From positions 1,179 to 65,178 of the forward strand of contig DAHXLE010000012.1 in NCBI GenBank assembly GCA_027371825.1: a DNA stretch of 64,000 nt, written 5' to 3'. The first letter of the stretch is position 1, and every line of letters starts with the position of its first letter. Origin of the DNA: Candidatus Saccharimonadota bacterium. Lineage in GTDB: Bacteria > Patescibacteriota > Saccharimonadia > Saccharimonadales > UBA4665. Made by a program: the position numbers and the translations under genes. Shown one piece after another: positions 3,405 through 49,149 of the stretch. Below the pieces are notes generated by a model. It searched no databases. It worked only from the letters and a program-made list of their open reading frames with translations, and was not told the origin of the DNA.

Positions 3405-3561
3405 AATTTTAAATATAAAGAGTGTGGAGAGAGATCTAGCTCGCTGACCCACCGGCAACCTGCATATTTGTTGTAAGGTGCTCCATCTAGCCCGCTATGC
3501 CGGGGATGATGTTTTCGTCTAACGAATCCTTTCTGACCGGTCAAGCAGAAAGGATATTTTT
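3405..3561 (+). promoter_or_regulatory. SAM riboswitch (SAM-I clan) with terminator/SD-sequestering hairpin, leader of metK
   Basis: AAAGAGTGTGGAGAGAGATCTAGCTCGCTGACCCACCGGCAACC...AAGGTGCTCCATCTAGCC...GGGGATGATG tracks the SAM-I core as I recall it (AAGAGAGGUGGAGGGACUGGCCCGAUGAAACCCGGCAACC...GGUGCUAAUUCCAGC...AGAUGAG). CUAG/CUAG replaces CUGG/CCAG as a compensatory pair. The GUGG...CCAC helix is present. P1 would be AAATAT/ATGTTT. An 8-bp hairpin follows (CCTTTCTG at 3528-3535, CAGAAAGG at 3546-3553) and then ATATTTTT. Its 3' arm contains the metK SD. Confidence 0.7.
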
Positions 3562-4689
3562 ATGTCAAATAGTCTAAACGGAACCTCGCTCTTTACGAGT
3601 GAGTCGGTGTGTGCTGGACATCCAGATAAAATCTGCGATGCTATAAGTGATGCAATACTTGACGAAGCCTTAAAACAAGACCATCTATCGAGGGTCGGCG
3701 TTGAGACGGTTGCAGGTGCTAACCAGATTTGTTTGTTCGGGGAAATTAAGACGCGCGCCCAACTGGACTATGAGGCGATTGCTCGCGGAAAAGTCGAAGA
3801 ATTGGGTTATACCGAACCAGCATGGGGATTCTCGCAAGAATCAGTCTTTAGCAACGATATTCATGAGCAATCACCTGAAATTGCCATTGGTGTAGACGAC
3901 GGTGGTGCGGGTGATCAGGGTATGATGTTTGGGTATGCTTGTGAAGAGACGCCGGAATTCATGCCTCTACCAATTATGCTGGCTCATGCATTGACGCGCC
4001 GTATAGATGAAACTCGGAAAAAAAATATTCTCAAATGGCTGCGACCTGACGGCAAAGCGCAAGTTACCGTTCGTTACGATAACCACGTACCCGTAGCTAT
4101 AGAGAAGGTAGTGGTGGCGGTCGCGCATCATGAGGATGCAACGGTCGAGCTTGTTCAGAGTGACGTGATACGTGAAATTATTACGCCCGTTCTCGCGCAT
4201 TATAAGTTCGAATTGCCATCGATGCACAATATTATAGTTAACGGTACTGGTTTATGGCATATCCCCGGACCTGAAAGTGATGCTGGGTTGACTGGACGCA
4301 AAATTGTTGTTGACACATACGGCGGCTATGCTCGTGTTGGCGGCGGTGCTTTCAGCGGAAAAGACCCCAGTAAAGTTGATCGTAGCGGTGCCTACGCAGC
4401 TAGGTATATTGCCAAGAATATTGTGGCGCGGGGTTTTGCGAAACAATGTGAGGTAGGGCTGGCGTACGTGATTGGTCATGCGCGACCGCTTATGCAAACT
4501 ATAGAGACTTTTGGCACGGCTACCGTTAGTGATCGAGCGCTACAAGACTTCAAAGATAAGCTTATCGATACAAGCGTCCGGGGAATCATCGAACGCCTTG
4601 ACCTACGCCGTCCGCTGTACTCACAAACTGCATCCTATGGTCATTTTGGTAAACCCGATCTGCCATGGGAAAAACTTGTCGATATATAA
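3562..4689 (+). CDS. metK: S-adenosylmethionine synthetase
   Basis: It carries the GHPDKICD, GAGDQGMMFGYA and GGGAFSGKDPSKVDRS motifs. The 375-aa ORF is full length. Confidence 0.97.
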   Translation: MSNSLNGTSLFTSESVCAGHPDKICDAISDAILDEALKQDHLSRVGVETVAGANQICLFGEIKTRAQLDYEAIARGKVEELGYTEPAWGFSQESVFSNDIHEQSPEIAIGVDDGGAGDQGMMFGYACEETPEFMPLPIMLAHALTRRIDETRKKNILKWLRPDGKAQVTVRYDNHVPVAIEKVVVAVAHHEDATVELVQSDVIREIITPVLAHYKFELPSMHNIIVNGTGLWHIPGPESDAGLTGRKIVVDTYGGYARVGGGAFSGKDPSKVDRSGAYAARYIAKNIVARGFAKQCEVGLAYVIGHARPLMQTIETFGTATVSDRALQDFKDKLIDTSVRGIIERLDLRRPLYSQTASYGHFGKPDLPWEKLVDI

Positions 4690-7295: not shown

Positions 7296-7607
7296 ATGCC
7301 CACGAAATACGATAGCAATAAAAACGGTACTCCCGAACTAACACAGGATCCGGAAGTAAGGGCTGCTGTTGACGAACGCCTATATGAATTACGCGTGGCT
7401 TTTAGTACCATTCTAAACGTGCTGATTACTAGGCACGTCAAACCCAACGAGGAAGATTCGTCCCGCTCTTTGAATTCCACCGGCGGTAATGAGCCCTCTG
7501 TAAGCGAAGTAGTTGACGACAATCTTCCCTATGACCCCGTTGAGGAGGCTGAGCACATCCTAGAACAAGCTCGTGCTGACGTATCGGCCGCTCGGGAGTT
7601 ACGTTAA
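7296..7607 (+). CDS. hypothetical acidic protein
   Basis: This 103-aa ORF is tightly packed, starting 5 nt after the tatD stop. Its stop overlaps the next start as TAATG. No family was recognised. Confidence 0.55.
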   Translation: MPTKYDSNKNGTPELTQDPEVRAAVDERLYELRVAFSTILNVLITRHVKPNEEDSSRSLNSTGGNEPSVSEVVDDNLPYDPVEEAEHILEQARADVSAARELR

Positions 7608-7978
7608 TGCCTAAATTATTCACTCAGATAAAAGCCCAAAAACAGCTCAACCGCCACGCGGCTTTGCAACGTGAGCTTATTAGACGAGAGGCCAAAATAG
7701 GCGGAGAACTCTTTGGTCCACTCCGCACGAACGGGCGACGAGATTTTTTCTGCTTAGATCGTCATACCTGGGTTTGGCACGAAGAATGGGACGACCAATA
7801 TGGCCAACATCACATAGTTACCACTAATTATGACATTCGGCCCAACGGAATTATTAAGGCCCAAAACGGACAAAACTACAGTTACTTAACGGCTAACGAA
7901 GCCCAAAATCTCTACAAAGCTGTTATGTTGTATAAGGAAAGAGTATTTAGTGAATTATACGGTCTAGCTGAGTCTTAG
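7607..7978 (+). CDS. hypothetical protein
   Basis: This 123-aa ORF is translationally coupled to the previous ORF. It is Trp/His-rich (HTWVWHEEWDDQYGQHH). No family was recognised. Confidence 0.6.
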   Translation: MPKLFTQIKAQKQLNRHAALQRELIRREAKIGGELFGPLRTNGRRDFFCLDRHTWVWHEEWDDQYGQHHIVTTNYDIRPNGIIKAQNGQNYSYLTANEAQNLYKAVMLYKERVFSELYGLAES

Positions 7979-8026: not shown

Positions 8027-9163
8027 ATGTCTAATATTTATTTGGATTATGCTGCTGCTACCCCTTTAGATCGACGGGTTATGCTGGCAATGAGGCCATA
8101 TTTTTCGAATAACTTCTACAATCCGTCGGGGTTGAGCGTAGAATCTGACGCCGTTCGAAGAGACATAGAATCCGCCCGAGAAACCGTTGCTCGTATACTA
8201 GGAGTAAAAACCAGCGAAATTATATTTACGGCCGGCTGCACCGAAGCCAACAATCTAGCCATTCGTGGAGTTATGGAGAAATACAGCCGAGCCAATGTAG
8301 TTATCAGCGCTATCGAACACGATTCGGTACTGGCGCCGGCCGGACTATATGACAACAAGCAAGTTCCGGTCGGACAAGACGCAGTAGTAGACATAGACCG
8401 TTTAGTTTCTTTAATAGACGATAATACCGTTCTTGTCAGCGTTATTCTTGCTAACAATGAAGTCGGTTCCATTCAACCGCTTCAGAAAATTTCGCAAAGG
8501 TTGGCAGATATCAAAAAACAAAGAACTGCTAGTGGTAATAAGCTGCCACTATTGTTCCACACCGATGCCGCTCAGGCTGGAAATTGCTTAAGTCTTCAAA
8601 TAGACAAACTCGGGGTCGACCTTTTAAGTCTTAACGGCGGTAAAATATACGGGCCTAAACAAAGCGGGGTATTGTTTGTTAGGTCGAGCTTGTCTCTTAG
8701 GCCGTTAATTCTTGGAGGCTTGCAGGAATCGGGTCTCAGGGCAGGAACCGAAAATCCAGCCGGGATCGTTGGCTTCGCCAGGGCTCTTTCGATCGCTCAA
8801 ACCGGGAGGGTATCCGAAGCACAAAGATTATCCGGCCTTACGGATTTATTTATTGAGCAAATTCGGGCACGCCTACCCAAGGCCATAATTAATGGCTCAC
8901 TGGTTAATAGACTGCCGGGCAATGTCCATTTATCAATTCCGGGAACAGACAATGAGCGTCTCATTATGGAGCTTGATTTAAGAGGGGTAATTGCGGCAGC
9001 CGGTTCTGCTTGCGGAGCTCTTAGAGATAGACCCTCTCACGTTCTCTCGGCGATGTCGATTGGTGATGACCTGATTCACTCCAGTTTACGATTTTCAATG
9101 GGTCGTTCAACTACCGCTCCCAAACTCAAACGCGTCATAGAGTTGTTAGTCTCCTTGGCCTAG
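8027..9163 (+). CDS. cysteine desulfurase (class V aminotransferase, NifS/IscS-like)
   Basis: Similarity to the fold type I family runs across the protein. The PLP-lysine region is LSLNGGKIYGPKQSG, where NGGK replaces the usual SGHK. The catalytic Cys loop is AAGSACGA. Confidence 0.85.
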   Translation: MSNIYLDYAAATPLDRRVMLAMRPYFSNNFYNPSGLSVESDAVRRDIESARETVARILGVKTSEIIFTAGCTEANNLAIRGVMEKYSRANVVISAIEHDSVLAPAGLYDNKQVPVGQDAVVDIDRLVSLIDDNTVLVSVILANNEVGSIQPLQKISQRLADIKKQRTASGNKLPLLFHTDAAQAGNCLSLQIDKLGVDLLSLNGGKIYGPKQSGVLFVRSSLSLRPLILGGLQESGLRAGTENPAGIVGFARALSIAQTGRVSEAQRLSGLTDLFIEQIRARLPKAIINGSLVNRLPGNVHLSIPGTDNERLIMELDLRGVIAAAGSACGALRDRPSHVLSAMSIGDDLIHSSLRFSMGRSTTAPKLKRVIELLVSLA

Positions 9164-9195
9164 TCAAAACATAAGCGCTATACTATTTATTAAGT

Positions 9196-10017
9196 ATGAA
9201 TCGTATAGCAAAGGGTATTCTTTTTATACCCATAGTCTGCGTTGTGTTATTGTCTGCTTCGGTAGCCTATGCTCAAGGCGTAGTTACCAGCTATGCTTCG
9301 ACTTCTACGTTGTCGATCGGTACAATCGTAGAATTACAGGACACCAAGAGAAATATAGTTGCAGCGCTGTCTCAAAAGAACGAACAGAAAATGTTCGGAG
9401 TGGTCGTAAACTCAATAGACAGTCCATTGTCACTGTCTGGTACTTCGGCGTCTAATCAGGTTTATGTTGCTACCAGCGGTGATTATAGCGTACTCGTAGA
9501 CAACCAGAACGGTCCCATTAAACAGGGTGATTATATCTCGATTTCTTCGGTTGATGGCATCGGAGCGAAAGCAGCTGTTACCGACTCAACCGTACTGGGT
9601 CGAGCCCTGTCGCCGTTTGAGGGTACGAGTGACAGTATTGGTCAAACGACGATCAATACTTCAGGGGGTGGCAAGGATAACTTGGCTATAGGCAGGATTA
9701 TCGTAAGTATCGCAGTTGGCGCTAATCCCGTACAACAGAATGTTATAATCCCGGGATTTTTGAGAAGTATAGCCCAGACGGTTTCTGCTAAACCCGTCAG
9801 TAGTTTGAGGATATATGTTAGTCTCGTAATATTGCTAGCCGATATGATCGTGGCGGGTGGGATGCTTTACGCCGGCATTAGGAGTAGTTTTATAGCGATT
9901 GGCCGCAACCCGTTATCGCAGAAAAAAATTACCAGGAGTTTAGTGGAAGTCATTTTTACTAGCCTCATTATTTTCATAATCGGGCTGATTGCGGTATATT
10001 TACTACTGAAGTTATAG
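9196..10017 (+). CDS. secreted beta-rich domain fused to an ATP-synthase c-subunit-like helical hairpin (in the atpE position)
   Basis: It begins with a signal peptide (ILFIPIVCVVLLSASVAYA/QG). About 190 aa of S/T/G/V-rich soluble domain follow. The C-terminal two-TM hairpin is ..VAGGMLYAGIRSSFIAIGRNPLSQKKITRSLVEVIFTSLIIFIIGLIAVYLLL, with a c-subunit-type R-N-P loop. It is the first gene of the atpF-H-A-G-D-C operon. Confidence 0.8.
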   Translation: MNRIAKGILFIPIVCVVLLSASVAYAQGVVTSYASTSTLSIGTIVELQDTKRNIVAALSQKNEQKMFGVVVNSIDSPLSLSGTSASNQVYVATSGDYSVLVDNQNGPIKQGDYISISSVDGIGAKAAVTDSTVLGRALSPFEGTSDSIGQTTINTSGGGKDNLAIGRIIVSIAVGANPVQQNVIIPGFLRSIAQTVSAKPVSSLRIYVSLVILLADMIVAGGMLYAGIRSSFIAIGRNPLSQKKITRSLVEVIFTSLIIFIIGLIAVYLLLKL

Positions 10018-10063: not shown

Positions 10064-10681
10064 ATGAATACATGGTGGTTCTTGGTAATTGTAGTTTCGG
10101 TAACATTTATAGGCGGCGGCATGATCTGGGCTATGGCTAAGATCAATCGTCTGCAGATTCAAAAAGACCATTCTACGGATATAGATTCTACTACCAGAAC
10201 CGACATTGAAAGAATCTTTAACGACGAATTCAGAAGTGAATTAAAAAACCGCGGTCGTCTACATTTTGAGAAAATTATCGGTGAAAATGCCATGTTCTTA
10301 CAACAGGACCTGCGCTTAACGACCTCACAACTTAACGACTACATGAAGCAAGAAATTACCGCCAAGCTCCAGGAAGAGTTTGCCAAATACGAACAGTCCA
10401 TCATGGACGCCAAACAACTTGCCATTGACTCAATAAATAAAACGAACGCTGCGGTCGAGGAGCAGCGCAAGAGTCTGAGTACCGAGTTGCAAAAAGAGAT
10501 TGCCAACGAGAAAAGCCGCATCCTAAAGGAGTTCGAGAAAAACACGACTGCTATCATCAATCACTATTTGTTAGAGGCTATCGGGGATCAAATAGATTTA
10601 AATGATCAATTAGAATATATCCTGAGTTCAATTGAAACCAATAAGCAGGCTATTATTGAGGATATACAAGGTGGGTCCTAA
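10064..10681 (+). CDS. atpF: F-type ATPase subunit b-like (peripheral stalk)
   Basis: It has a single N-terminal TM helix (WWFLVIVVSVTFIGGGMIWAMA) followed by a long charged coiled coil. The call rests on its position between the c-like gene and the delta gene. Sequence similarity to b is weak. Confidence 0.6.
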   Translation: MNTWWFLVIVVSVTFIGGGMIWAMAKINRLQIQKDHSTDIDSTTRTDIERIFNDEFRSELKNRGRLHFEKIIGENAMFLQQDLRLTTSQLNDYMKQEITAKLQEEFAKYEQSIMDAKQLAIDSINKTNAAVEEQRKSLSTELQKEIANEKSRILKEFEKNTTAIINHYLLEAIGDQIDLNDQLEYILSSIETNKQAIIEDIQGGS

Positions 10682-11180
10682 GAAAGAAAAAACAGTTTTG
10701 AACTTACCTATGCAGGTGATTTCACCGGCAGATGTGAGCAGACTGTCCCGTGAGCTGGAATCGCTGGAGGATTTCATGGAGCAATCCGCCATTCGGACCA
10801 AGGGAGTAGGTTTAAAATTACCGGCATCTTCTAAGCTTTTAGATGAATTAGCTGCTTCTAATTCATTTAATTTTCTTCACATTCAAGACCGTAAACTAGC
10901 CAAGGAGTTTCTAGGGACACTGACTAAAACTGCGCCGGTCATCCATCTCAGTTTTGCGTCCGATCCGTCGGCAGCATTCTTATCAAAACTTGTTTCGCGG
11001 CTTAGAGACATTATTCATCCCCAGCTGTTGGTTCGCACCGGGCTAGAACCGTCGATTGCAGCCGGCTGCATACTAAGAACTAATAATCGTCAATTTGACT
11101 TTAGTCTAAGGACTACCCTGTATGCCAAGTCAGACCTGTTAATGAAGGCCCTTAAATTGAATAGCGAGGGACAAACTTGA
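10671..11180 (+). CDS. atpH: F-type ATPase subunit delta (OSCP)
   Basis: The C-terminal part LVRTGLEPSIAAGCILRTNNRQFDFSLRTTL matches the delta/OSCP C-terminal pattern (..dpsliGG..i..g...iD.S....L). The ORF is open from 10632. A GTG at 10671, preceded by GAGGA, is the more likely start. Confidence 0.7.
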   Translation: MGPKKEKTVLNLPMQVISPADVSRLSRELESLEDFMEQSAIRTKGVGLKLPASSKLLDELAASNSFNFLHIQDRKLAKEFLGTLTKTAPVIHLSFASDPSAAFLSKLVSRLRDIIHPQLLVRTGLEPSIAAGCILRTNNRQFDFSLRTTLYAKSDLLMKALKLNSEGQT

Positions 11181-12636
11181 GCGACAACAGACACTTTGAC
11201 CAGCTAGTAAACAACAATCACCCCATTGGAGAAGTTATCGGGGTGGATAAATTTCTTATAAAACTTAGCGGACTGCAGCCGGTCAATACCCATGCTCTAA
11301 TAATGTTCGAAGATGGCAGCAAAGGTTATGTCCATCATGTTTTGCCGGATTATACTCTTGTGTTTCATATGGGGCGAGTACCTATTAGGGTCGGTATGAC
11401 GGCAGTGGTACAACACGACGCATTGGTTAGTCAGGTGGGTAAAGGATTTGTTGGCAGGATAGTAACGGTTAGCGGTGAGCCGCTTGATGGCAAGGGTCCC
11501 ATAGGCGCCGACGGTGTTTGGCCGGTGTTTGCTCAGGCGCCCATGTTATATAAACGGGAACTTCTGGATACACAGCTTGAGACCGGGGTGGCCATTGTTG
11601 ACAGTCTTTTCCCGCTAGTCAAAGGACAAAGGATAGCGATATTAGGAGACAACAAGTCCGGCAAAACGACCTTAGGTCTTCAGACGGCTATAAACCAAAG
11701 AAATACCGACATGATCGTAGTCTACGTTTTGATAGCTAAACGCCGGAGTGATATTGACGATCTCGTTACTCAGATGCAGGCCAACAATTCTCTGGATAAA
11801 GCGGTCATAGTGGTCTCGACAATGTCGGACTCTTTAGTAATGAGTTTTCTTGCTCCTTATGTCGGATGCTCTATAGCGGAATATCTTTGGCAAATTGTCG
11901 GTCAAGATGTCATGGTGATCTACGATGATCTAACCAGTCACGCTCAGATTTATCGTGAGATGTCGCTTCTATCCGGGGTGAGTCCGGGACGTGATTCCTA
12001 TCCCGGAGATATGTTCTATATCCATTCCCAGTTACTGGAACGAGCGGGTAAGTTGGCGGAAAATCATAAAACACTTACTGCTTTGCCGCTTGTTCTAACT
12101 CCCGGTGGCGACATAACCGGTTTCTTGTCTACCAACCTTATGTCTATAACGGATGGGCAGTGGATACTTGATATGAAGACATTTCGTGACACAGTACGAC
12201 CGGCGCTTAGTGTGCCATTGAGTGTTACCAGAGTTGGCGGTCGAGGTCAAAATAAAAGACAAAAAGTTCAGAGTGCCCAGATACTACAAGCTCTCAGCGC
12301 TTACGCGACGGCCGAACAATACTCACATTTTGGAACCGAAATGGGCGGTAATTTACAGCGCGCCGTAGACAGAGGACATGATCTTTATGAGCTCTTTACT
12401 CAAAAGCCCGGCGAAACTTACAGCCTTCTCGCTCAACAACTGATGCTAGAGGTTTTTCTGGGACTGTCACCGGAAGAAACAATAGATATAACGGCCCTGA
12501 AGGCTAATGCGTCCGTTTATGCTGAAAAACTGGATCCTAATGACGAGAAAGGCTTTCAGGCGGTGTCCGATAAATTGAAAAGTGCGTTTCTTGTCAAGGG
12601 TAATACCAAAAAGCTAACTCCTACCAAAGGACAAGC

Positions 12637-12640
<4 letters not shown>
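11177..12640 (+). CDS. atpA: F-type ATPase subunit alpha (divergent)
   Basis: The Walker A motif is GDNKSGKTT (canonical GDRQTGKT). SPGRDSYPGDMFYIHSQLLERA matches [21 protein letters not shown]. The TTG start overlaps the delta stop as TTGA. Confidence 0.9.
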
Positions 12641-15120
<2,480 letters not shown>

Positions 15121-15124
<4 letters not shown>

Positions 15125-16419: not shown

Positions 16420-17190
16420 ATGAAACATTGGAGGCATACCATTGGAGTCGTTATTGTTTGCGGCATACTTTTTGCGATCTCTCCCGTAAGCGTTAAAGCC
16501 GATACTTACGCCTCTCCAAATTATCAGATAAATCAGGTATTTGTCGGCAATGGCGGGTCGCTTAGCCTATCCTCGCCAAACTATTCTGCCCAGGCTTCAG
16601 TAGGAGCGCTCGGTGTCGGACACAGCTCCAGTACTAATTTTCAAGCACAAGCAGGCTATGATACTAACCGATCACCCTATCTTGAACTGGGTGTCACCAA
16701 TAGTAGTACAAGTTTGGGCACGCTAAGTAGCTCAACGACAGCTACCGCTACGGCCAAATTCCTCGTCAAGGCATATTTGGCTAATGGCTATGTGGTTCAA
16801 ACCAATAGTCCGCCTCCTTCCAGTGGCAGCCATACACTTCAACCGTTAGCTACGGCAACGGCGTCGGTGGCCGGCCAAGAGCAATTCGGCATGAACCTAG
16901 TGGCCGATACGAATCCTAGCTCACTGAGTACGACAAGTTCGAATCCTGTCCAAAATCCTGATAATACATTTAGTTTCGGAAGCGTTAACCCTGCTACCTG
17001 TGCATCGGTGAGTAGCGGCTATAATATACCCAATGAATATAAGTATGCCGAAGGTGACGTTATAGCAGCTTCTTGTTTAAGCTCCGGTGAAACAGACTAC
17101 ACGATTTCATATATATTTAACGTTAGCAATACGACCCCCGGCGGGCATTACACATTTAATGATGTCATTGTCGCCACAGCTACTTATTAG
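16420..17190 (+). CDS. secreted fibre/pilin-like protein, short paralog (P1)
   Basis: It has a signal peptide (..ISPVSVKA/DT). Three short repeats follow: SPNYQINQVFVGNGG, SPNYSAQASVGALG and STNFQAQAGYD. It shares with P2-P4 the motifs SVAGQEQFGMNLVADTNP and the C-terminal NVSNTTPGGHYTFNDVIVATATY-stop. Confidence 0.85.
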   Translation: MKHWRHTIGVVIVCGILFAISPVSVKADTYASPNYQINQVFVGNGGSLSLSSPNYSAQASVGALGVGHSSSTNFQAQAGYDTNRSPYLELGVTNSSTSLGTLSSSTTATATAKFLVKAYLANGYVVQTNSPPPSSGSHTLQPLATATASVAGQEQFGMNLVADTNPSSLSTTSSNPVQNPDNTFSFGSVNPATCASVSSGYNIPNEYKYAEGDVIAASCLSSGETDYTISYIFNVSNTTPGGHYTFNDVIVATATY

Positions 17191-17199
17191 ATACCGACT

Positions 17200-18372
17200 A
17201 TGCCTATAATCAAAACATCAAAATCCTTAATTATTTTACTAACTGTCTCTGCTGTCACGGCATGGTTTATCGGATTAACTCCTGGGTACGTACTGGCCTA
17301 CTCATTGGCCACCCCGGATTCTATTACTATGACGAGCTCTATGCCTTCTGCGGTGAACGTGTCCTATGCGGTCAGTTTTACCGCAGCAACTACGGCAACT
17401 CTCCAGGGAATAATCGTCGACTTTTGCTCAAACAGTCCGACACTCGGCGACGTGTGTGACGCCCCGGCCGGATTTTCGGTCGGGACACCGATTGTCACCA
17501 ATGAAGCAGGAATAACATCCAGCTGGTCAGCCTCCTCTCTGGACAGCGATAGGACGGTTCTACTGACTTATCCTACCGGTACGGCTATAACCTCCGGCGA
17601 GAACATATCGTTCAACGTAACTACCGTTACTAACCCGTCCGCTGCCAATACTACATACTATGCCCGGATATTAACCTATACATCTTCGACAGTAGCATCG
17701 GCTTATAGTGTCAGCAGTACCTCGTCGAGTATAGGGGATCCAACCGACGCCGGCGGCGTGGCACTTTCTACTAGTAACAGCATAAGCGTTAATTTTGTTA
17801 TACCAGAGTCACTATCTTTTTGTGTATACACCGGGGCTAACTGCGCGGCAGGGGGCAATTCAATAACTCTGGGGGACTCGCACGGCTATCTGTCGGTTAG
17901 CGGCCCGTTTGTCGACAAGTCCGTCAAATATGATATATCGACCAATGCTTCTCATGGAGCGGTTGTTGATCTGCAGGGTAATACTCTCCGTTACGGTGCC
18001 CAGTCAATCCCGGCACTTTCTACGCCGACCGCCAGTGTTGCCGGTACCTCACAGTTTGGGGTATGCACCTATACATCTGCCGGGTCAAGTCTTGTGCCCT
18101 TTGGGGATTATGATGGCAATGCAGGTAGCGGTGGGACGGCCTGCCAAAACGTCGCACAAAGCTCAGGCGGGAGCGGTCCGGGGAGCGGGGGCGGAGTTTT
18201 ATGGTACTTCAATCTAGCACAGATTTCTTCCGCATATGGTGATGAAATTGCCTCGATACCTTCAAGTACCACCAACACGGGTGTTTTGGCCATGATGGCG
18301 AATATTTCCACTACTTTGCCGAGCGGAATTTATACTACCAGTCTTGATCTGTTAGCAACGGGCACCTATTGA
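17200..18372 (+). CDS. secreted fibre/pilin-like protein, two-domain paralog (P2)
   Basis: It has a signal peptide. Its motifs include VDFCSNSPTLGDVCDAPAGFSVGTP, GGVALSTS, SLSFCVYTGANCAAGGNSITLGD and GTSQFGVCTY. The C-terminus is SGIYTTSLDLLATGTY-stop. It has three Cys pairs. Confidence 0.88.
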   Translation: MPIIKTSKSLIILLTVSAVTAWFIGLTPGYVLAYSLATPDSITMTSSMPSAVNVSYAVSFTAATTATLQGIIVDFCSNSPTLGDVCDAPAGFSVGTPIVTNEAGITSSWSASSLDSDRTVLLTYPTGTAITSGENISFNVTTVTNPSAANTTYYARILTYTSSTVASAYSVSSTSSSIGDPTDAGGVALSTSNSISVNFVIPESLSFCVYTGANCAAGGNSITLGDSHGYLSVSGPFVDKSVKYDISTNASHGAVVDLQGNTLRYGAQSIPALSTPTASVAGTSQFGVCTYTSAGSSLVPFGDYDGNAGSGGTACQNVAQSSGGSGPGSGGGVLWYFNLAQISSAYGDEIASIPSSTTNTGVLAMMANISTTLPSGIYTTSLDLLATGTY

Positions 18373-18495
18373 GTTTAGGAGGGTGTGGATAAGTGTATTG
18401 CGAGATATTAATTTTCGTATTAAACTAATGCACAGTTAGGTTTGTTTCACACATAGGTGTCATAATAGATAAAGAACTCCGAAAAAAATAAAACC

Positions 18496-19698
18496 ATGAA
18501 AATTGTTCAGCATTTTAGAAAGATAACGTACATGATAGCCTCGCTGGTGATGCTATCGGGTACGATCAGTTTCATAGGTGCTGAAGCGGTACACGCCTTT
18601 CCTCTATACGGTGAGGTGCAGTCTCGTTCGATCGAAATGAGTACATCCGTGCCGGGGGCTGCGGCCACCTATCACGTTACCTTTACCGTTGCAACTACAG
18701 CCTCGGTCGGTGGAATCGTAGTAGATTTTTGTTCCAACGATCCAATTCTCGGCGATACCTGTACTGCCCCGACGGGTTTAAGCATCGGCACACCAACGGT
18801 TAGCGGTGCCAGTACCAATCTAACAGGTACTTGGACTGCCGCAAAAATTGCCTCTAGTGCGAGTACGCTTGGATATACAACGGCTACACCGGTGGCATTA
18901 ACCGGGGGCACATCGATTGTCTATTTTGACATAACCTCAATGACTAACCCGACGACAACCGGTAGTTTGTACGCCAGGCTGTATACCTTTGATACCGCAA
19001 CCGATGCCGGCAGTTACACTGCAACCGGAGCCGATACGGGGTTGATAGACGGTGGTGGTGTTGCTCTCTCGACAAATCCAACCTTGAATGTTACGGCCAA
19101 AGTGCAGGAAGAGTTAACCTTCTGTATCGATACGAATAGTGCCGCTAACTGTTCGACCGCATCCGGCAATTCCGTGGCTTTAGGTGATAGTCATGGTGTT
19201 TTATCGAGCCAGGGGGCGTACGTAGACAAAACCACGCAATATATCGTACAAACCAATGCCAGTGTCGGTGCGGCGATCAGAATTGAGGGTAATACGCTAT
19301 CGTTTGGATCCAATCAGATTGCTGCTGCATGTTCAGGATCGTGTCCGGGGGCCACTCCGGCTACGTCGGCTGTTGGCACTTCTCAGTTTGGTCTATGCAC
19401 ATATGACTCAGCAGGTGCTGCTACCATAACGGCTGCCGCAACATACAATGGCGGGGCCGCCGGTAAATGTGCCGGTACTACTCAGACTGCCGGTACTACT
19501 ACCCCTGGCGGAGATAACGGCGCATCGTTTGGTCTGAATACGACGCTGACTAGCGGGACATATGGCGACACACTTGCTAATGTGGTAGCCGGTGCTCAGG
19601 CTACCGGCACTTTGGTGTTTCTCGGCAATATATCCGTAACCCAGCCAGCCGGAATCTATACTACTGCTCTCACGCTTGTGGCAACCGGTACATATTAA
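18496..19698 (+). CDS. secreted fibre/pilin-like protein, two-domain paralog (P3)
   Basis: It is collinear with P2. Its motifs include VDFCSNDPILGDTCTAPTGLSIGTP, GGVALSTNP, LTFCIDTNSAANC..VALGD and GTSQFGLCTY. The C-terminus is AGIYTTALTLVATGTY-stop. It is preceded by a 123-nt gap containing a CATAAT hexamer. Confidence 0.88.
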   Translation: MKIVQHFRKITYMIASLVMLSGTISFIGAEAVHAFPLYGEVQSRSIEMSTSVPGAAATYHVTFTVATTASVGGIVVDFCSNDPILGDTCTAPTGLSIGTPTVSGASTNLTGTWTAAKIASSASTLGYTTATPVALTGGTSIVYFDITSMTNPTTTGSLYARLYTFDTATDAGSYTATGADTGLIDGGGVALSTNPTLNVTAKVQEELTFCIDTNSAANCSTASGNSVALGDSHGVLSSQGAYVDKTTQYIVQTNASVGAAIRIEGNTLSFGSNQIAAACSGSCPGATPATSAVGTSQFGLCTYDSAGAATITAAATYNGGAAGKCAGTTQTAGTTTPGGDNGASFGLNTTLTSGTYGDTLANVVAGAQATGTLVFLGNISVTQPAGIYTTALTLVATGTY

Positions 19699-19710
19699 GG
19701 GACATCCTTT

Positions 19711-20787
19711 GTGCGACACGCACTACGTCGATTTTCGATAAAGTTTTTAACGGCAATTAGTCTTTTGCTGATTTCGACCGTTTCGACACTGCTGATTAAT
19801 ACTCCCGGTGTATATGCCACTACATTGTATGTATCGAATCGTACCGATGAACTATCGACCTCGACAGTGAGTGCTACGGCAACCCATATAATCTCATTTG
19901 CAATGACCGACACCACGGATCCTTTAGGTTCGATCAGACTTGAATTTTGTTCCAATGATCCGATTCCTGAAGACAGCTGTGTTGCGCCGGCAGGGTTAAA
20001 TCTATTGGGTGCATCGCTCGGGAGCCAAAGCGGCAATACGGGCTTTGTAATAGCCACCGCGACCGCGAATGAAATATTGCTGAGCAGGTCATCAGATCAG
20101 GTACCAAACAGCAGTCTTAATAGTTATCAGATAATTAATGCCATTAATCCATCATATTTAGGTACATTTTATCTTCGCCTGTATACCTATTCGTCGATCG
20201 ATGGCAGCGGTACTCAAACAGAAGAAGGGGGCATAGCCCTTAGCACAAATACCGGTGTCAATGTTACGGCCCAAGTACCCCCCTATTTGGGTTTTTGTGC
20301 CGGCGCAACAATCACCGGACATGATTGTTCTTCCGTCTCGGGGTATTACCTGAACTTCGGTGATTTCAGTAGCCTGAAGCCGTCTGTAGCTACTTCACAG
20401 TTTAGCGTAGGCACTAATGCCGGTAACGGCTATAATGTTACAATCAACGGAAGCACCCTAACTTCCGGTAATAATGTTATTCCGGCCCTTGCCAACCCAA
20501 GTCCGTCAATTGCCGGAACAAGCGAGTTTGGTATAAATTTGGTTGCCAATACTTCGCCTTTGTCGGGAAGTAATCCTGTCGGACCTTCAGATGTCGATGG
20601 TCGGGTAATGCCGCCCTACAATGTACCCAACGAGTTTTTGTTTAATACCGGGGGTGTAGTCGTCAGTTCAATAACCAGTAGCAACTATCAAATATTTACC
20701 ACCACCTACCTCGCCAATGTTAGTAATAGCCAGGCTGCAGGAGTTTATACCTCGACCATAACTTATGTTTGCCTAGCTAATTTTTAA
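19711..20787 (+). CDS. secreted fibre/pilin-like protein, two-domain paralog (P4)
   Basis: It starts at a GTG after AAGGGA. Its motifs include LEFCSNDPIPEDSCVAPAGLNLLG, GGIALSTNTGVNVTAQV, LGFCAGATITGHDC..YYLNFGD and GTSEFGINLVANTSP. It shares YNVPNEF with P1. The C-terminus is AGVYTSTITYVCLANF-stop. Confidence 0.88.
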   Translation: MRHALRRFSIKFLTAISLLLISTVSTLLINTPGVYATTLYVSNRTDELSTSTVSATATHIISFAMTDTTDPLGSIRLEFCSNDPIPEDSCVAPAGLNLLGASLGSQSGNTGFVIATATANEILLSRSSDQVPNSSLNSYQIINAINPSYLGTFYLRLYTYSSIDGSGTQTEEGGIALSTNTGVNVTAQVPPYLGFCAGATITGHDCSSVSGYYLNFGDFSSLKPSVATSQFSVGTNAGNGYNVTINGSTLTSGNNVIPALANPSPSIAGTSEFGINLVANTSPLSGSNPVGPSDVDGRVMPPYNVPNEFLFNTGGVVVSSITSSNYQIFTTTYLANVSNSQAAGVYTSTITYVCLANF

Positions 20788-20811
20788 TGAGATAGTGTTA
20801 TAATAACGCAT

Positions 20812-21801
20812 ATGTTAAGAGCTCACTTTCCAAGCTCAATGTCCCTGAGGGTGTTGCTGCTGCCGGTTATATTAATACCTATCGTTTTGTTGCCATCGGT
20901 TAAAGCGGCGGCTGCCGGCGTGGCTAACGGATTTCTTATCTCGCCAGTTACGGAGTATCTAACCGTTAACAAGGGCACTACTCAGACAGTTGATATTGCC
21001 GTTCAGAATCCAACGAATTCATCTGTGGTTGCTCAAGCTGTGGTTAATGACTTTATTGCAAGCGGTAATGAAACCGGAGTGCCGAGGGTGTTACTAAACG
21101 GCAGCGCAGTACCGGCTAATAACTTCAGAACTTTGGTTTCCCGTATACCCAATACCATATTAACCCCTGGCGAAAAACAGTACATTCCGGTTACCATTAC
21201 CGTTCCTAAAAATGCTGAATCCGGAGGTTACTACGGTGTTGTGAGGTTTACTCCCGCCACTAACGGTCCGTCATCAGGAGCAAATGTCGGGTTAACCGCG
21301 AGTGTCGGCACACTGTTTTTGGTAACTGTTCCCGGAAACTTATCGAAAAAGATTGAGTTGGTGCAGTTGTCTGCTGCAAACTCCAAAGGTAGCCCATCGA
21401 GTTTTCTAAGTTATGGTAACGTATCGGTGATGGTTCGCTTAAAAAACATCGGTAATGTTTATGCGCAACCGTTTGGAACGGTACTTGTTAAAAATATGTT
21501 TGGCTCGACGGTTGCAAGCTATCAGTTTAATAACACTACCCCAAGAGCTAGTGTTCTACAAAATAGCATCAGGAAGTTTATTAATCCGTTGCCCCAAAAA
21601 AGCTGGTTTGGCTACTATACTATTAATGCCAATATCGCATACAACACCGGCGGAGGTAACATCATAATTGCCAATGCGTCGTTTTGGTACATTCCGTGGT
21701 GGTCTTGGTTAATTCTGGCGGCCGTAATAGCTCTGCTGGGTATCTTGGGCTATTTCATTAGAAACAGAAAATATCGCCATCACAGAAAACATAAAGGTTA
21801 A
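20812..21801 (+). CDS. membrane-anchored two-beta-domain protein (CscA/DUF916+DUF3324-like architecture); putative fibre assembly/anchor factor
   Basis: It has a signal peptide and two all-beta segments (FLISPVTEYLTVNKGTTQTVDIAVQNPTN...; ...VMVRLKNIGNVYAQPFGTVLV...). A C-terminal TM helix (WWSWLILAAVIALLGILGYFI) and a basic tail (RNRKYRHHRKHKG) follow. Confidence 0.85.
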   Translation: MLRAHFPSSMSLRVLLLPVILIPIVLLPSVKAAAAGVANGFLISPVTEYLTVNKGTTQTVDIAVQNPTNSSVVAQAVVNDFIASGNETGVPRVLLNGSAVPANNFRTLVSRIPNTILTPGEKQYIPVTITVPKNAESGGYYGVVRFTPATNGPSSGANVGLTASVGTLFLVTVPGNLSKKIELVQLSAANSKGSPSSFLSYGNVSVMVRLKNIGNVYAQPFGTVLVKNMFGSTVASYQFNNTTPRASVLQNSIRKFINPLPQKSWFGYYTINANIAYNTGGGNIIIANASFWYIPWWSWLILAAVIALLGILGYFIRNRKYRHHRKHKG

Positions 21802-21891
21802 AGGTGGTGGGTTTTTGTGTCGGTTCAAATGACCTACACGGAGAGGCGCATTGCTAGTAGCATTTTTTAATCCTAATAAAGCAACACAACC

Positions 21892-22809
21892 ATGAACAGT
21901 CGCAGCAGTGCCGTAGAACTAAAACGCCGTCTTAGGCTATTCTTCGCTGCGCTATTTGCTGCTTGTATTGTCAGCTTGGGCGGGTATTATTCGAGCGCTT
22001 CGGCTCTCAGTATGACCCAGAATGGCTCGATTGGGTTGCAGGGTACGGTCAGCTCACCGCCACCAACCACGCCGGCTAATATTACTACACCAGGCAACGG
22101 ACAAGTTCTAACAAACGGTCTAGTGACGGTTGGGGGTCAGTGCACTAATGGTTTGTTAGTGGAAGTTTTTTCAAATAATGTCTTTGCCGGGTCGACAAAA
22201 TGTAGCGGAGGAACATTCAGCATACAGGCCAGCTTGTTTAACGGCACCAACCAACTGGATGCTAAAGTGTATGATGCTCTAGGCCAATCTGGTCCTAATT
22301 CAAATACCCCGATAGTGCAATATAGTAGTGCTAAATTTTCTTCTCTAGGGCCTTTATTGACCTTGTCAAGCATCTATGCGACGCAAGGAATCAATCCAGG
22401 CAATCTTCTAAGTTGGCCGATTACTATATCCGGTGGCTCTGAGCCTTACAGTTTGAGTATAAACTGGGGTGACGGTACGCCGCCACAGTCCCAATCGGCT
22501 CCGTTTTTCGGAAATGTTATGCTCTCTCATACGTATCAAAATGCCGGTACGTATAATATCAGCGTTAAAGCCACCGACGTAAATGGTGAAGTTGCATTCC
22601 TGCAAATGGTCGGGGTGGCCAACGGAGCTGTACCGCAATCTGCGTCGACGACAAATAACAGTCAACCAACAAGCAATACCGCTTATCTGGAATGGTGGCC
22701 CGCTATGGTAATACTGCCTTTGTTGCTGGTGGCATTCTGGCTTGGCGGTGCCCATAGGATTACCTCTTTAAAAAAGAAATTGGATAACGGTAACGACAAT
22801 CTCAAATAG
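21892..22809 (+). CDS. surface protein with Ig-like and PKD domains and a C-terminal TM anchor
   Basis: It has an N-terminal signal or anchor. The Ig-like segment runs ITTPGNGQVLTNGLVTVGGQC...GTNQLDAKVYDALGQSG. The PKD signature is INWGDGTPPQ...HTYQNAGTYNISVKATDVNGE. The C-terminal TM helix is WWPAMVILPLLLVAFWLGG. Confidence 0.85.
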   Translation: MNSRSSAVELKRRLRLFFAALFAACIVSLGGYYSSASALSMTQNGSIGLQGTVSSPPPTTPANITTPGNGQVLTNGLVTVGGQCTNGLLVEVFSNNVFAGSTKCSGGTFSIQASLFNGTNQLDAKVYDALGQSGPNSNTPIVQYSSAKFSSLGPLLTLSSIYATQGINPGNLLSWPITISGGSEPYSLSINWGDGTPPQSQSAPFFGNVMLSHTYQNAGTYNISVKATDVNGEVAFLQMVGVANGAVPQSASTTNNSQPTSNTAYLEWWPAMVILPLLLVAFWLGGAHRITSLKKKLDNGNDNLK

Positions 22810-48565: not shown

Positions 48566-48940
48566 ATGCAGACTTTTCTTCATAAAGCATACGTTCGTTT
48601 TATTATGCGATGGCTGGCCTGTAGTTTGGGACTATGGATATCTGCTGCTGTTTTGTCCAAAGATCTGTCGTATAACAATAGCGCCATAGTTATTGTAATT
48701 GGCGGAGCAGTACTGGCTTTAATAAATATATTGATTCGGCCCGTGGTGGTAGTATTGTCTCTTCCGGCGGTGTTATTTAGCCTGGGTTTGTTCATGGTGG
48801 TCATAAACGGTTTAATGGTCCTTTTGGCATCGACTCTGTATAAACCGCTGCATGTTACGGATTTCTGGGCAGCTATAGTTGCCGGAATGATCATAGGACT
48901 GGTAAACTATCTAGTGACAACTATAGTCGAAGGCCTATGA
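48566..48940 (+). CDS. small four-TM membrane protein (YvlD/DUF360, 'phage holin 4-2'-like family)
   Basis: It is 124 aa with four hydrophobic helices. The family assignment comes from remembered architecture and sequence feel only. Confidence 0.6.
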   Translation: MQTFLHKAYVRFIMRWLACSLGLWISAAVLSKDLSYNNSAIVIVIGGAVLALINILIRPVVVVLSLPAVLFSLGLFMVVINGLMVLLASTLYKPLHVTDFWAAIVAGMIIGLVNYLVTTIVEGL

Positions 48941-49149
48941 ATATTTGGAATTACATAACTATCGGATCAATGCTGCTAATGGTGCTTTTAATATTGGTCC
49001 AAACTCGCGGCGCATCGCTCGGAGCCGGTCTGGGCGGTAGCGGCGAAGTCAATATGACGCGTCGTGGCAGCGATAAAACACTTCACGAAATGACGATTAT
49101 TACCGTTGTGGTATTCGCGGCCTCTCTGGTTCTCGGAATCATCGCATGA
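48937..49149 (+). CDS. secG: preprotein translocase subunit SecG
   Basis: It is 70 aa. Two TM helices flank a Gly-rich loop, QTRGASLGAGLGGSG. The start is an ATGA overlap. Confidence 0.75.
   Translation: MNIWNYITIGSMLLMVLLILVQTRGASLGAGLGGSGEVNMTRRGSDKTLHEMTIITVVVFAASLVLGIIA

Follow-up and report, generated by a model that had tools for sequence, protein, structure and literature searches.

To our knowledge, in every F-type rotor characterised so far, a carboxylate in the c-ring and subunit a together couple rotation to the flow of ions, and we know of carboxylate-less hairpins only as one half of the fused double hairpins in mixed or V-type rings (Acetobacterium woodii c1), never as the sole ring component. 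Among the Saccharibacteria, canonical operons have been described for Southlakia epibionticum (atpZ-B-E-F-H-A-G-D-C), whose ATP synthase annotation covers only seven genes, none of them essential (PMC10633639), and for rhodopsin-bearing members (atpB-E-F-H-A-G-D-C; PMC9296517 Table S1). A different membrane sector is found in the Type 3 F1-like X0 ATPase of Mycoplasma (MSC_0618-0624 / MMCAP2_0575-0581), whose X0 protein has a signal peptide, ectodomains and two C-terminal transmembrane (TM) helices (PMC12994834), and on which MIB-MIP, an extracellular system of antibody cleavage, depends (PMC12994834; PMC3369863). Here, we describe a variant F-type ATPase operon in a stretch of 64,000 nucleotides (nt), referred to as the window, from a Candidatus Saccharimonadota bacterium (NCBI GenBank assembly GCA_027371825.1, contig DAHXLE010000012.1, positions 1,179 to 65,178 of the forward strand). 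The first gene of this operon, which we call c', encodes an exported domain fused to a c-like helical hairpin that is devoid of the ion-binding carboxylate.

We conclude that the variant operon is a real, conserved and lineage-specific derivative of the F-type ATPase that is widespread in environmental Saccharimonadales. Literature searches for a prior description of it found none. On balance, we think it probable, though by no means assured, that the operon encodes an F-type motor that is driven by ATP, translocates no ions and works at the cell surface, by analogy with the F1-like X0 ATPase of Mycoplasma.

An F-type operon headed by an exported fusion protein

The genes are arranged in the order c', b-like, delta, alpha, gamma, beta, epsilon, which is the canonical atp order (E-F-H-A-G-D-C) minus atpB. 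The features of the operon and of the adjoining convergent gene, with lengths in amino acids (aa), are as follows; the hairpin positions +14 and +20 are counted from the loop arginine R237, and structural assignments come from an AlphaFold2 (AF2) model.

9155..9184, + strand: weak promoter-like sequence TTGGCC-18-TATACT, 12 nt before the c' start codon (consensus scan)
9196..10017, + strand: c', c-like protein (273 aa), an open reading frame (ORF) with signal peptide, ectodomain and C-terminal hairpin
9196..9273, + strand: predicted signal peptide of c', aa 1-26, with the hydrophobic segment at residues 8-26 and cleavage between AYA and Q
9274..9753, + strand: beta-rich exported ectodomain, approximately aa 27-186 (~160 aa), predicted local distance difference test (pLDDT) >90 (AF2, Foldseek)
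9754..9786, + strand: predicted amphipathic helix, aa 187-197, ahead of TM1 (DSSP on the AF2 model)
9802..9906, + strand: predicted hairpin helix 1, aa 203-237 (AF2), with a small-residue face of A/G/S every ~3-4 positions
9901..9912, + strand: cytoplasmic loop G236-R237-N238-P239, present in 81/81 unique hairpins
9910..10011, + strand: predicted hairpin helix 2, aa 239-272 (AF2), with E251 (9946-9948) at +14 and L257 (9964-9966) at +20
10064..10681, + strand: b-like subunit (205 aa), named by position and architecture (N-terminal TM helix, long helical region)
10632..11180, + strand: delta/OSCP homologue (182 aa), TTG start, weak Pfam OSCP match
11177..12640, + strand: divergent F1 alpha (487 aa), ATP-synt_ab E = 4e-65
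12637..13497, + strand: F1 gamma (286 aa), PF00231 E = 6e-30 over the full length
13494..14801, + strand: divergent, C-terminally short F1 beta (435 aa), atpD 417 bits vs a cut-off of 463
14798..15124, + strand: F1 epsilon (108 aa), PF02823 E = 1e-12 over residues 31-105; consists of the beta-sandwich and lacks the C-terminal helices
15121..16146, - strand: convergent fibre gene (341 aa), encoding a type II membrane protein and candidate partner

Compared with the eight-subunit canonical F1Fo operon, subunit a is missing, c is replaced, b is present by position only and delta is confirmed. In the consensus scan upstream of c', promoter-like sites were no commoner than in shuffled sequence.

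The AF2 model of c', built from 40 homologues, reached a mean pLDDT of 84, and in it the beta-rich domain spans residues ~30-176. Hydropathy analysis identified the N-terminal signal segment (residues 8-26) and two C-terminal TM segments. The cleavable signal peptide would place the N-terminal domain outside the cell, and five K/R residues surround the loop, compared with two before TM1. Across the family, the cleavage site consists of A-x-A followed by a near-invariant Q27, the signal peptide is the least conserved region of c' (pairwise identity 0.23), and a PGFL motif is conserved at the amphipathic helix. The layout that the initial annotation had read from the DNA (signal peptide, ectodomain and c-shaped hairpin, in the place of atpE) is therefore confirmed by the ORF, the AF2 model and family conservation, and its residue count from R237 (+20 = L257, +14 = E251, -21 = D216) was correct.

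An identical c' is present on three independent assemblies (ENA ERZ27237304, 87.7 kb; Logan SRR13203278; ENA ERZ27237200). A search of 5.8 billion proteins yielded 1,133 homologues, essentially all of 250-330 aa (typically ~275 aa), and those that carry names belong to Candidatus Saccharimonadales. When one genome per GTDB species was scanned, a c' relative was found in 169 species. For comparison, we fetched the loci of 80 of these, almost all from metagenome-assembled genomes (MAGs) of Saccharimonadales/Saccharibacteria and including the complete genome CP023991.1. The gene for c' was the first of the operon in 80/80 loci, tblastn recovered the order c'-b-delta-alpha-gamma-beta-epsilon in every locus long enough to show it, and metG-tatD-x-x-nifS lay upstream in most. 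A frameshift or misassembly, which had been raised as a possible artefact, is excluded by the three independent assemblies and by intact fusions in 80 species; the fusion is genuine (more than 1,100 homologues), and both it and the hydrophobic residue at +20 are kept in related genomes, as had been suggested for checking. In Southlakia, which does not carry the variant operon, metG-tatD-x-x-nifS is kept and followed by YdcF. Therefore, the variant is a separate locus that is lacking in some lineages. Two of the compared contigs, L037 (DATLCF010000001.1, 562 kb, labelled 'Nevskiaceae bacterium') and L048 (JAEWBQ010000005.1, labelled 'Candidatus Parcubacteria bacterium'), carry a Saccharimonadales-type operon and are probably mis-binned or mislabelled MAGs.

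The F1 subunits are recognisable and divergent. Alpha scored 379 bits against the NCBIfam curated cut-off of 554 for canonical alpha, and the scores of beta and gamma (equivalog cut-off) were likewise too low. Alpha keeps the P-loop and the RPA(V/L/I) arginine finger. In beta, the motifs [11 protein letters not shown][IV]RE and PADD (Walker A, catalytic Glu) are present in 68/68 full-length orthologues, and ENELSPAD stands in place of DELSEED. Judged by these motifs, F1 looks catalytically competent. The closest canonical relatives of the variant beta, at 44% identity, are ordinary Patescibacteria betas of Levybacteria and Woesebacteria, which points to an origin inside the Patescibacteria radiation. 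A homologue search from the nearest canonical beta reached only Microgenomates-type Patescibacteria betas. Membership in the N-ATPases was rejected (no atpDCQRBEFAG order; the alt_F1F0 models score below atpA/atpD), as was membership in the Mycoplasma Type 2/3 systems, on gene content and NCBIfam model scores.

One could see in this divergence a decaying ATP synthase remnant of a reduced genome, which has lost subunit a and the c carboxylate while the rest is drifting. Patescibacteria often have minimal ATP synthases or have lost them (PMC10656485), and the synthase of Southlakia is dispensable (PMC10633639). Against this, the ORFs are intact with the same gene order in 80 species, the catalytic motifs of beta do not vary, the GRNP loop and the GLFAVYLLL motif of the hairpin are invariant, a folded ectodomain was gained and conserved, and the family comprises more than 1,100 clusters. 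The intact ORFs, invariant motifs, conserved ectodomain and large family indicate strong purifying selection and gain of function, and we regard decay as highly improbable.

Delta and the b-like subunit differ in how well they can be assigned. The family profile of delta matches PDB OSCP/delta chains (E = 3.5e-4), by which delta is a true OSCP homologue. Its start is uncertain, as the TTG at 10632 overlaps the b-like ORF by 50 nt (10632-10681) and public gene calls begin at 10656 (174 aa). Neither ATP-synt_B nor the b subunits in the PDB were matched significantly by the b-like protein; identification as a true b therefore lacks significant sequence support, and the label rests on position. 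Its orthologues carry the TM helix in 56 of 82 loci and lack it in 26 (among them L025, L027-L031, L039, L041, L042, L048, L049, L051, L053 and L056), where the protein is longer (227-298 aa) and starts with MGLFQ. The canonical role of the b-subunit TM helix is to bind or hold subunit a, and its loss fits a machine without this subunit.

Neither atpB nor atpE was found in the window when all ORFs were searched with a c-subunit hidden Markov model (HMM) and all multi-TM ORFs with Pfam; the multi-TM ORFs are only MurJ, a holin-like protein and SecG. Both genes were also absent from the 80 fetched loci. No second alpha or beta (tblastn) and no c-HMM match occurred within +-10 kb, amounting to 1.43 Mb of flanking sequence, in which ~1.4 operons would be expected by chance if every genome had one canonical operon at a random place, so that the flanks are too short in total to rule out a more remote copy. 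Split atp operons occur in other bacteria, and the genes from b to epsilon could in the same way form a synthase with a and c encoded elsewhere, c' being an unrelated surface protein in the same transcription unit. That c' has no significant ATP-synt_C HMM match would agree with such a split synthase, as would the reviews according to which F-type ATPase modules are common among environmental Saccharibacteria (PMC11659515). However, c' is linked to the F1 genes in 80/80 species, its cytoplasmic loop and not its ectodomain is the most conserved part, which is unexpected for a simple anchor, and the loss of the b-like TM helix in 26 lineages is hard to square with binding of subunit a. Moreover, alpha and beta fall under the curated cut-offs for canonical subunits, and in those Saccharibacteria that have a and c, the two belong to a complete operon that includes its own b, delta, alpha, gamma, beta and epsilon. 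We thus consider a split synthase improbable.

Likeness of the c' hairpin to subunit c

Conservation of the hairpin was assessed on 81 unique hairpins from the 80 species. The loop residues G-R-N-P are invariant (81/81). At +20, the position of the essential carboxylate of c subunits (E. coli D61), the residue is never acidic and always hydrophobic (L in 37, I in 14, V in 12, F in 11, M in 5, C in 1 and A in 1). Apart from +14, D/E are absent from the TM segments. The claim of the initial annotation that the hairpin has no mid-membrane carboxylate therefore holds for the whole family. It had also listed E at +14 and D at -21 as the only acidic residues of the hairpin; both are present in the window, and neither is constant in the family. 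Position +14, the only polar site, which sits only ~4 residues into the membrane from the cytoplasmic side, alternates between Q (43) and E (32), with S/T/K in 6 hairpins, and position -21 is S/T/A/C in relatives, so that D216 is peculiar to the window sequence. A functional carboxylate at either position is ruled out on these grounds. The residue at +14 is mostly E where the b-like protein is TM-less and mostly Q where it bears the TM helix. A 57-aa product from an internal start (the Met of ADMIVAGG) is out as a family feature, as relatives have L/I/A/V at the position of this Met.

Within c', pairwise identity is highest in the loop (0.69), followed by helix 2 (0.64), helix 1 (0.50) and the ectodomain (0.49). 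Such loop-centred conservation is unexpected for a passive anchor and, as a sequence pattern, agrees with docking of a cytoplasmic partner by the loop. The end of helix 2 in the outer leaflet (window 9964-10011, aa 257-272), G-L-F/I-A-V-Y-L-L-L-K/R, is near-invariant in the 81 hairpins; it is more conserved than any canonical c stretch at that place, with no subunit a to account for it.

Like AtpE (PF00137), the hairpin consists of two antiparallel helices of ~35 residues with both termini outside and a cytoplasmic R-(Q/N)-P loop, and it is encoded directly before b-delta-alpha-gamma-beta-epsilon. In the AF2 model the helices measure 35 and 34 residues, as in c subunits, and in alignments the GRNP loop falls on the R-Q/N-P loop of c subunits. 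As pointed out previously, c' shares K-I at +7/+8, G-L at +26/+27 and the L-L tail with spinach c. Unlike AtpE, c' has no mid-membrane Asp/Glu, no GxGxGxG motif, no Pfam match as a c subunit and no a-subunit partner, and it carries a signal peptide and a ~160-aa ectodomain ahead of helix 1.

Searches with profiles gave faint signals. While full-length c' had no match in a PDB sequence search, and our own HMM of six c-subunit sequences gave c' -0.2 bits, the hairpin profile searched against 177,635 distinct PDB sequences had a single match at E <= 10. This was A. woodii c2 (E = 1.2), aligned in register (37-74 to 37-74). Alignment of the 81 hairpins with six c subunits by hhalign gave a loop-centred local score of 20.05 (P = 0.0033) and, in a gap-poor global alignment, a score of 14.86. 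Column shuffles that keep the TM-loop-TM architecture reached either score in 0/150 cases (local mean 10.6, sd 2.3; global mean 3.4, sd 2.8), which places the local score at z ~4. Full shuffles (0/60) and the reversed alignment also stayed below the real score.

When the c' model was compared with the PDB by Foldseek, the hairpin superposed on whole F-type c subunits. The match to c of Chloroflexus (C. aurantiacus) spanned 67-69 residues with 20-21% identity, a TM-score of 0.85-0.91 and a root-mean-square deviation (rmsd) of 1.1-1.5 A, and further matches were to c subunits of A. woodii, Spirulina, chloroplast and Yarrowia (targets 9itt_I, 9itm_H, 4bem_A, 2wie_A, 6fkf_G and 5fl7_R; TM-scores target-normalised, up to 0.91). 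Taken together, the hairpin is c-like by fold, topology, loop and operon place, and homology is not established by standard criteria.

The place at the head of the operon does not by itself separate an AtpE from an AtpZ origin, because canonical operons of Saccharibacteria also start with a 2-TM AtpZ/AtpI. This leads to a further explanation, namely that the hairpin is not derived from c (being of AtpZ/AtpI descent or unrelated) and that c', instead of forming a rotor ring, helps to assemble a soluble F1-like ATPase, regulates it or tethers it to the membrane. AtpZ/AtpI (PF09527) resembles c' in heading atp operons and in being a small membrane protein of at least two TM helices; the Southlakia operon opens with it (SEML1_0349), which makes the place ambiguous after deletion of B and E. 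The sequence resembles c only weakly, and as AtpZ structures in the PDB are few if any, Foldseek is biased to c. However, AtpZ has no ectodomain and no detectable similarity to c': PF09527 was not matched by any of 31 isolated hairpins at E <= 10, nor was any NCBIfam model matched at E <= 1. The R-N-P loop, the in-register global alignment, the helix lengths and the topology suit c better, and the similarity score to c lies above all architecture-keeping shuffles. We hold a non-c origin to be unlikely.

A putative ATP-driven surface machine

The ectodomain has the fold of phage decoration and fibre-anchor domains. Foldseek against the PDB matched it to the capsid decoration proteins of Sf11, Borrelia BB1 and TW1 and to lambda gpD (best E = 1e-4), and Foldseek against BFVD matched preneck appendage, capsid fibre, Mtd N-terminal and DUF2190 proteins (E down to 3e-9). 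The only Pfam match of the full c' protein was a weak one of the ectodomain to XM1_gp53_minor_capsid (E = 3.5e-4), and a PHROGs search with c' gave no match. Phage domains of the gpD/DUF2190 type cement capsids or anchor trimeric beta-helical fibres. They have the fold in common with the c' ectodomain at 14-24% sequence identity; unlike them, the c' ectodomain belongs to a cellular protein, has a signal peptide for export and is joined to a membrane hairpin encoded in an ATPase operon.

A candidate partner of the ectodomain is the protein of the convergent fibre gene, which adjoins the operon in 63/84 loci, most of the others ending too soon. Its N-terminus, predicted to be cytoplasmic, is rich in Pro and leads into a single TM helix preceded by K/R, a bactofilin-like beta-helix and a C-terminal domain that is confidently folded in the AF2 model. 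Many of its 924 homologues carry PF04519 or are annotated as bactofilin. Foldseek matches of the C-terminal domain to tailspikes, pyocin fibre tips and H-type lectins were sub-threshold, and we treat this likeness between models as a lead, not a result. In one genome (L070:2235-5229, +), the gene for a 725-aa paralogue of the fibre protein lies directly behind a second c'-like gene, which encodes 285 aa with the hairpin AMGRNPLARRS..., and F1 genes are absent from their vicinity. That the two genes were duplicated jointly is the strongest indication that c' and the fibre protein act together.

The proposed motor has its nearest counterpart in the Mycoplasma Type 3 system. Both occur in reduced bacteria that depend on a host, both join a derived or paralogous F1 (alpha, beta, gamma, epsilon) to a membrane sector that is not canonical, and Protein 5 of Mycoplasma (MSC_0620 / MMCAP2_0577) has the same layout as c', with a signal peptide, an ectodomain and two C-terminal TM helices. 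The Type 3 enzyme works as an ATPase rather than a synthase, in the service of an extracellular process, and shares its genome with an essential canonical (Type 1) F1Fo. It differs from the variant in gene content: the Mycoplasma cluster of seven genes includes a 12-TM protein and a small cytoplasmic protein, has no b or delta and is rearranged, whereas the variant operon keeps delta and a b-like gene, has no 12-TM protein and follows the canonical order. The variant alpha and beta also score nearer to canonical F1 than to the MSC_0618/0619 models. The ectodomain of c' is a different domain of 17 kDa, vs ~80 kDa in Mycoplasma, and no sequence similarity to the Mycoplasma cluster was detected (no NCBIfam match for c').

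We propose that the c' hairpins would form a c-like ring, with the GRNP loops docking the foot of gamma and epsilon. Because there is neither a carboxylate nor a subunit a, such an enzyme would have no ion path and could only hydrolyse ATP. Torque or conformational change would then pass via the ring to an outer crown of phage-fibre-anchor-like domains, which may work on, or jointly with, the beta-helix/lectin-like fibre protein that is co-conserved and anchored in the membrane. In its most specific form, F1 would turn an ion-blind ring whose ectodomain crown holds or drives the fibre, so that ATP powers rotation or pulling of an adhesin without the proton-motive force (PMF); we offer this version as a tentative one that is more likely wrong than right. 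As to function, the machine would energise a surface process by ATP and independently of the PMF; attachment to or manipulation of the host surface is our guess for this process.

Several points weigh against an ATP-driven motor built on a c-type ring. None of the 31 isolated hairpins matched Pfam PF00137 (ATP-synt_C) at E <= 10, c' matched no NCBIfam family at E <= 1, and the hhalign probability for hairpin vs c was below 10%. Helix 1 is without the GxGxGxG packing motif (A-G-S ... A-G ... S-S ... S-x-G instead). The likeness of the modelled hairpin to c in three dimensions is supportive, and the fold is too simple, and the PDB too rich in c, for it to decide. The check proposed in the initial annotation, a profile or structural match of the hairpin to c, thus came out in favour by Foldseek, the PDB profile search and the shuffles and fell short by Pfam and by hhalign probability. 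A ring of c' with an ectodomain on every protomer is inferred, and the near-invariant outer end of helix 2 is left unexplained by the model. The motor would also need an element that resists the torque, especially where the b-like protein is TM-less. An atpB-atpE pair alone elsewhere in the same genome might pair with the F1 encoded here. Finally, the variant machine is known here from sequences and predicted structures alone.

Neighbouring genes and implications

Beyond the fibre gene lie four paralogous secreted proteins rich in S/T/G/A (16420-22809, +; 256, 390, 400 and 358 aa), with C-termini ending in ATGTY or LANF and no Pfam match. Next come a protein that combines a weakly matched WxL-interacting peptidoglycan-binding domain with a C-terminal TM helix, and a membrane protein with a PKD domain. 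The region at 16420-22809 looks like a cell-surface protein cluster, and similar secreted-protein genes lie 3' of the operon in the loci L003 and L004. Upstream of the operon, between tatD and nifS, are two small conserved ORFs of 103 and 123 aa (7296-7978, +) without a Pfam match. The same pair in Southlakia (SEML1_0662/0661) was essential or growth-defective in transposon sequencing (Tn-seq). Because it is also present in Southlakia, which lacks the variant operon, the pair is independent of the ATPase operon. Elsewhere in the window, a SAM-I riboswitch (3410-3515, +; 52.9 bits) precedes the S-adenosylmethionine synthetase gene (3562-4689), and a 4-TM protein of the 'mycobacterial phage holin superfamily IV' (48566-49149, +; PF04020 E = 5e-22) is encoded directly upstream of, and overlapping, secG.

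If the proposed motor is real, a second reduced, host-dependent lineage would, convergently with Mycoplasma, have turned the F-type architecture to mechanical work across the membrane, and rotary-motor research would be offered a natural ring stripped of ion coupling. In the tentative version in which F1 drives the fibre, it would be an ATP-powered counterpart of motors of the MotAB, ExbBD and GldLM type in an epibiont with little PMF of its own. Bearers of the variant may then not make ATP from the PMF, or the PMF from ATP, with this enzyme, and calls of 'F-type ATPase present' in metabolic reconstructions of Patescibacteria may be wrong for many genomes. For the Saccharimonadales, the operon would represent a candidate surface machine tied to a lectin-like fibre and possibly relevant to their epibiotic lifestyle.

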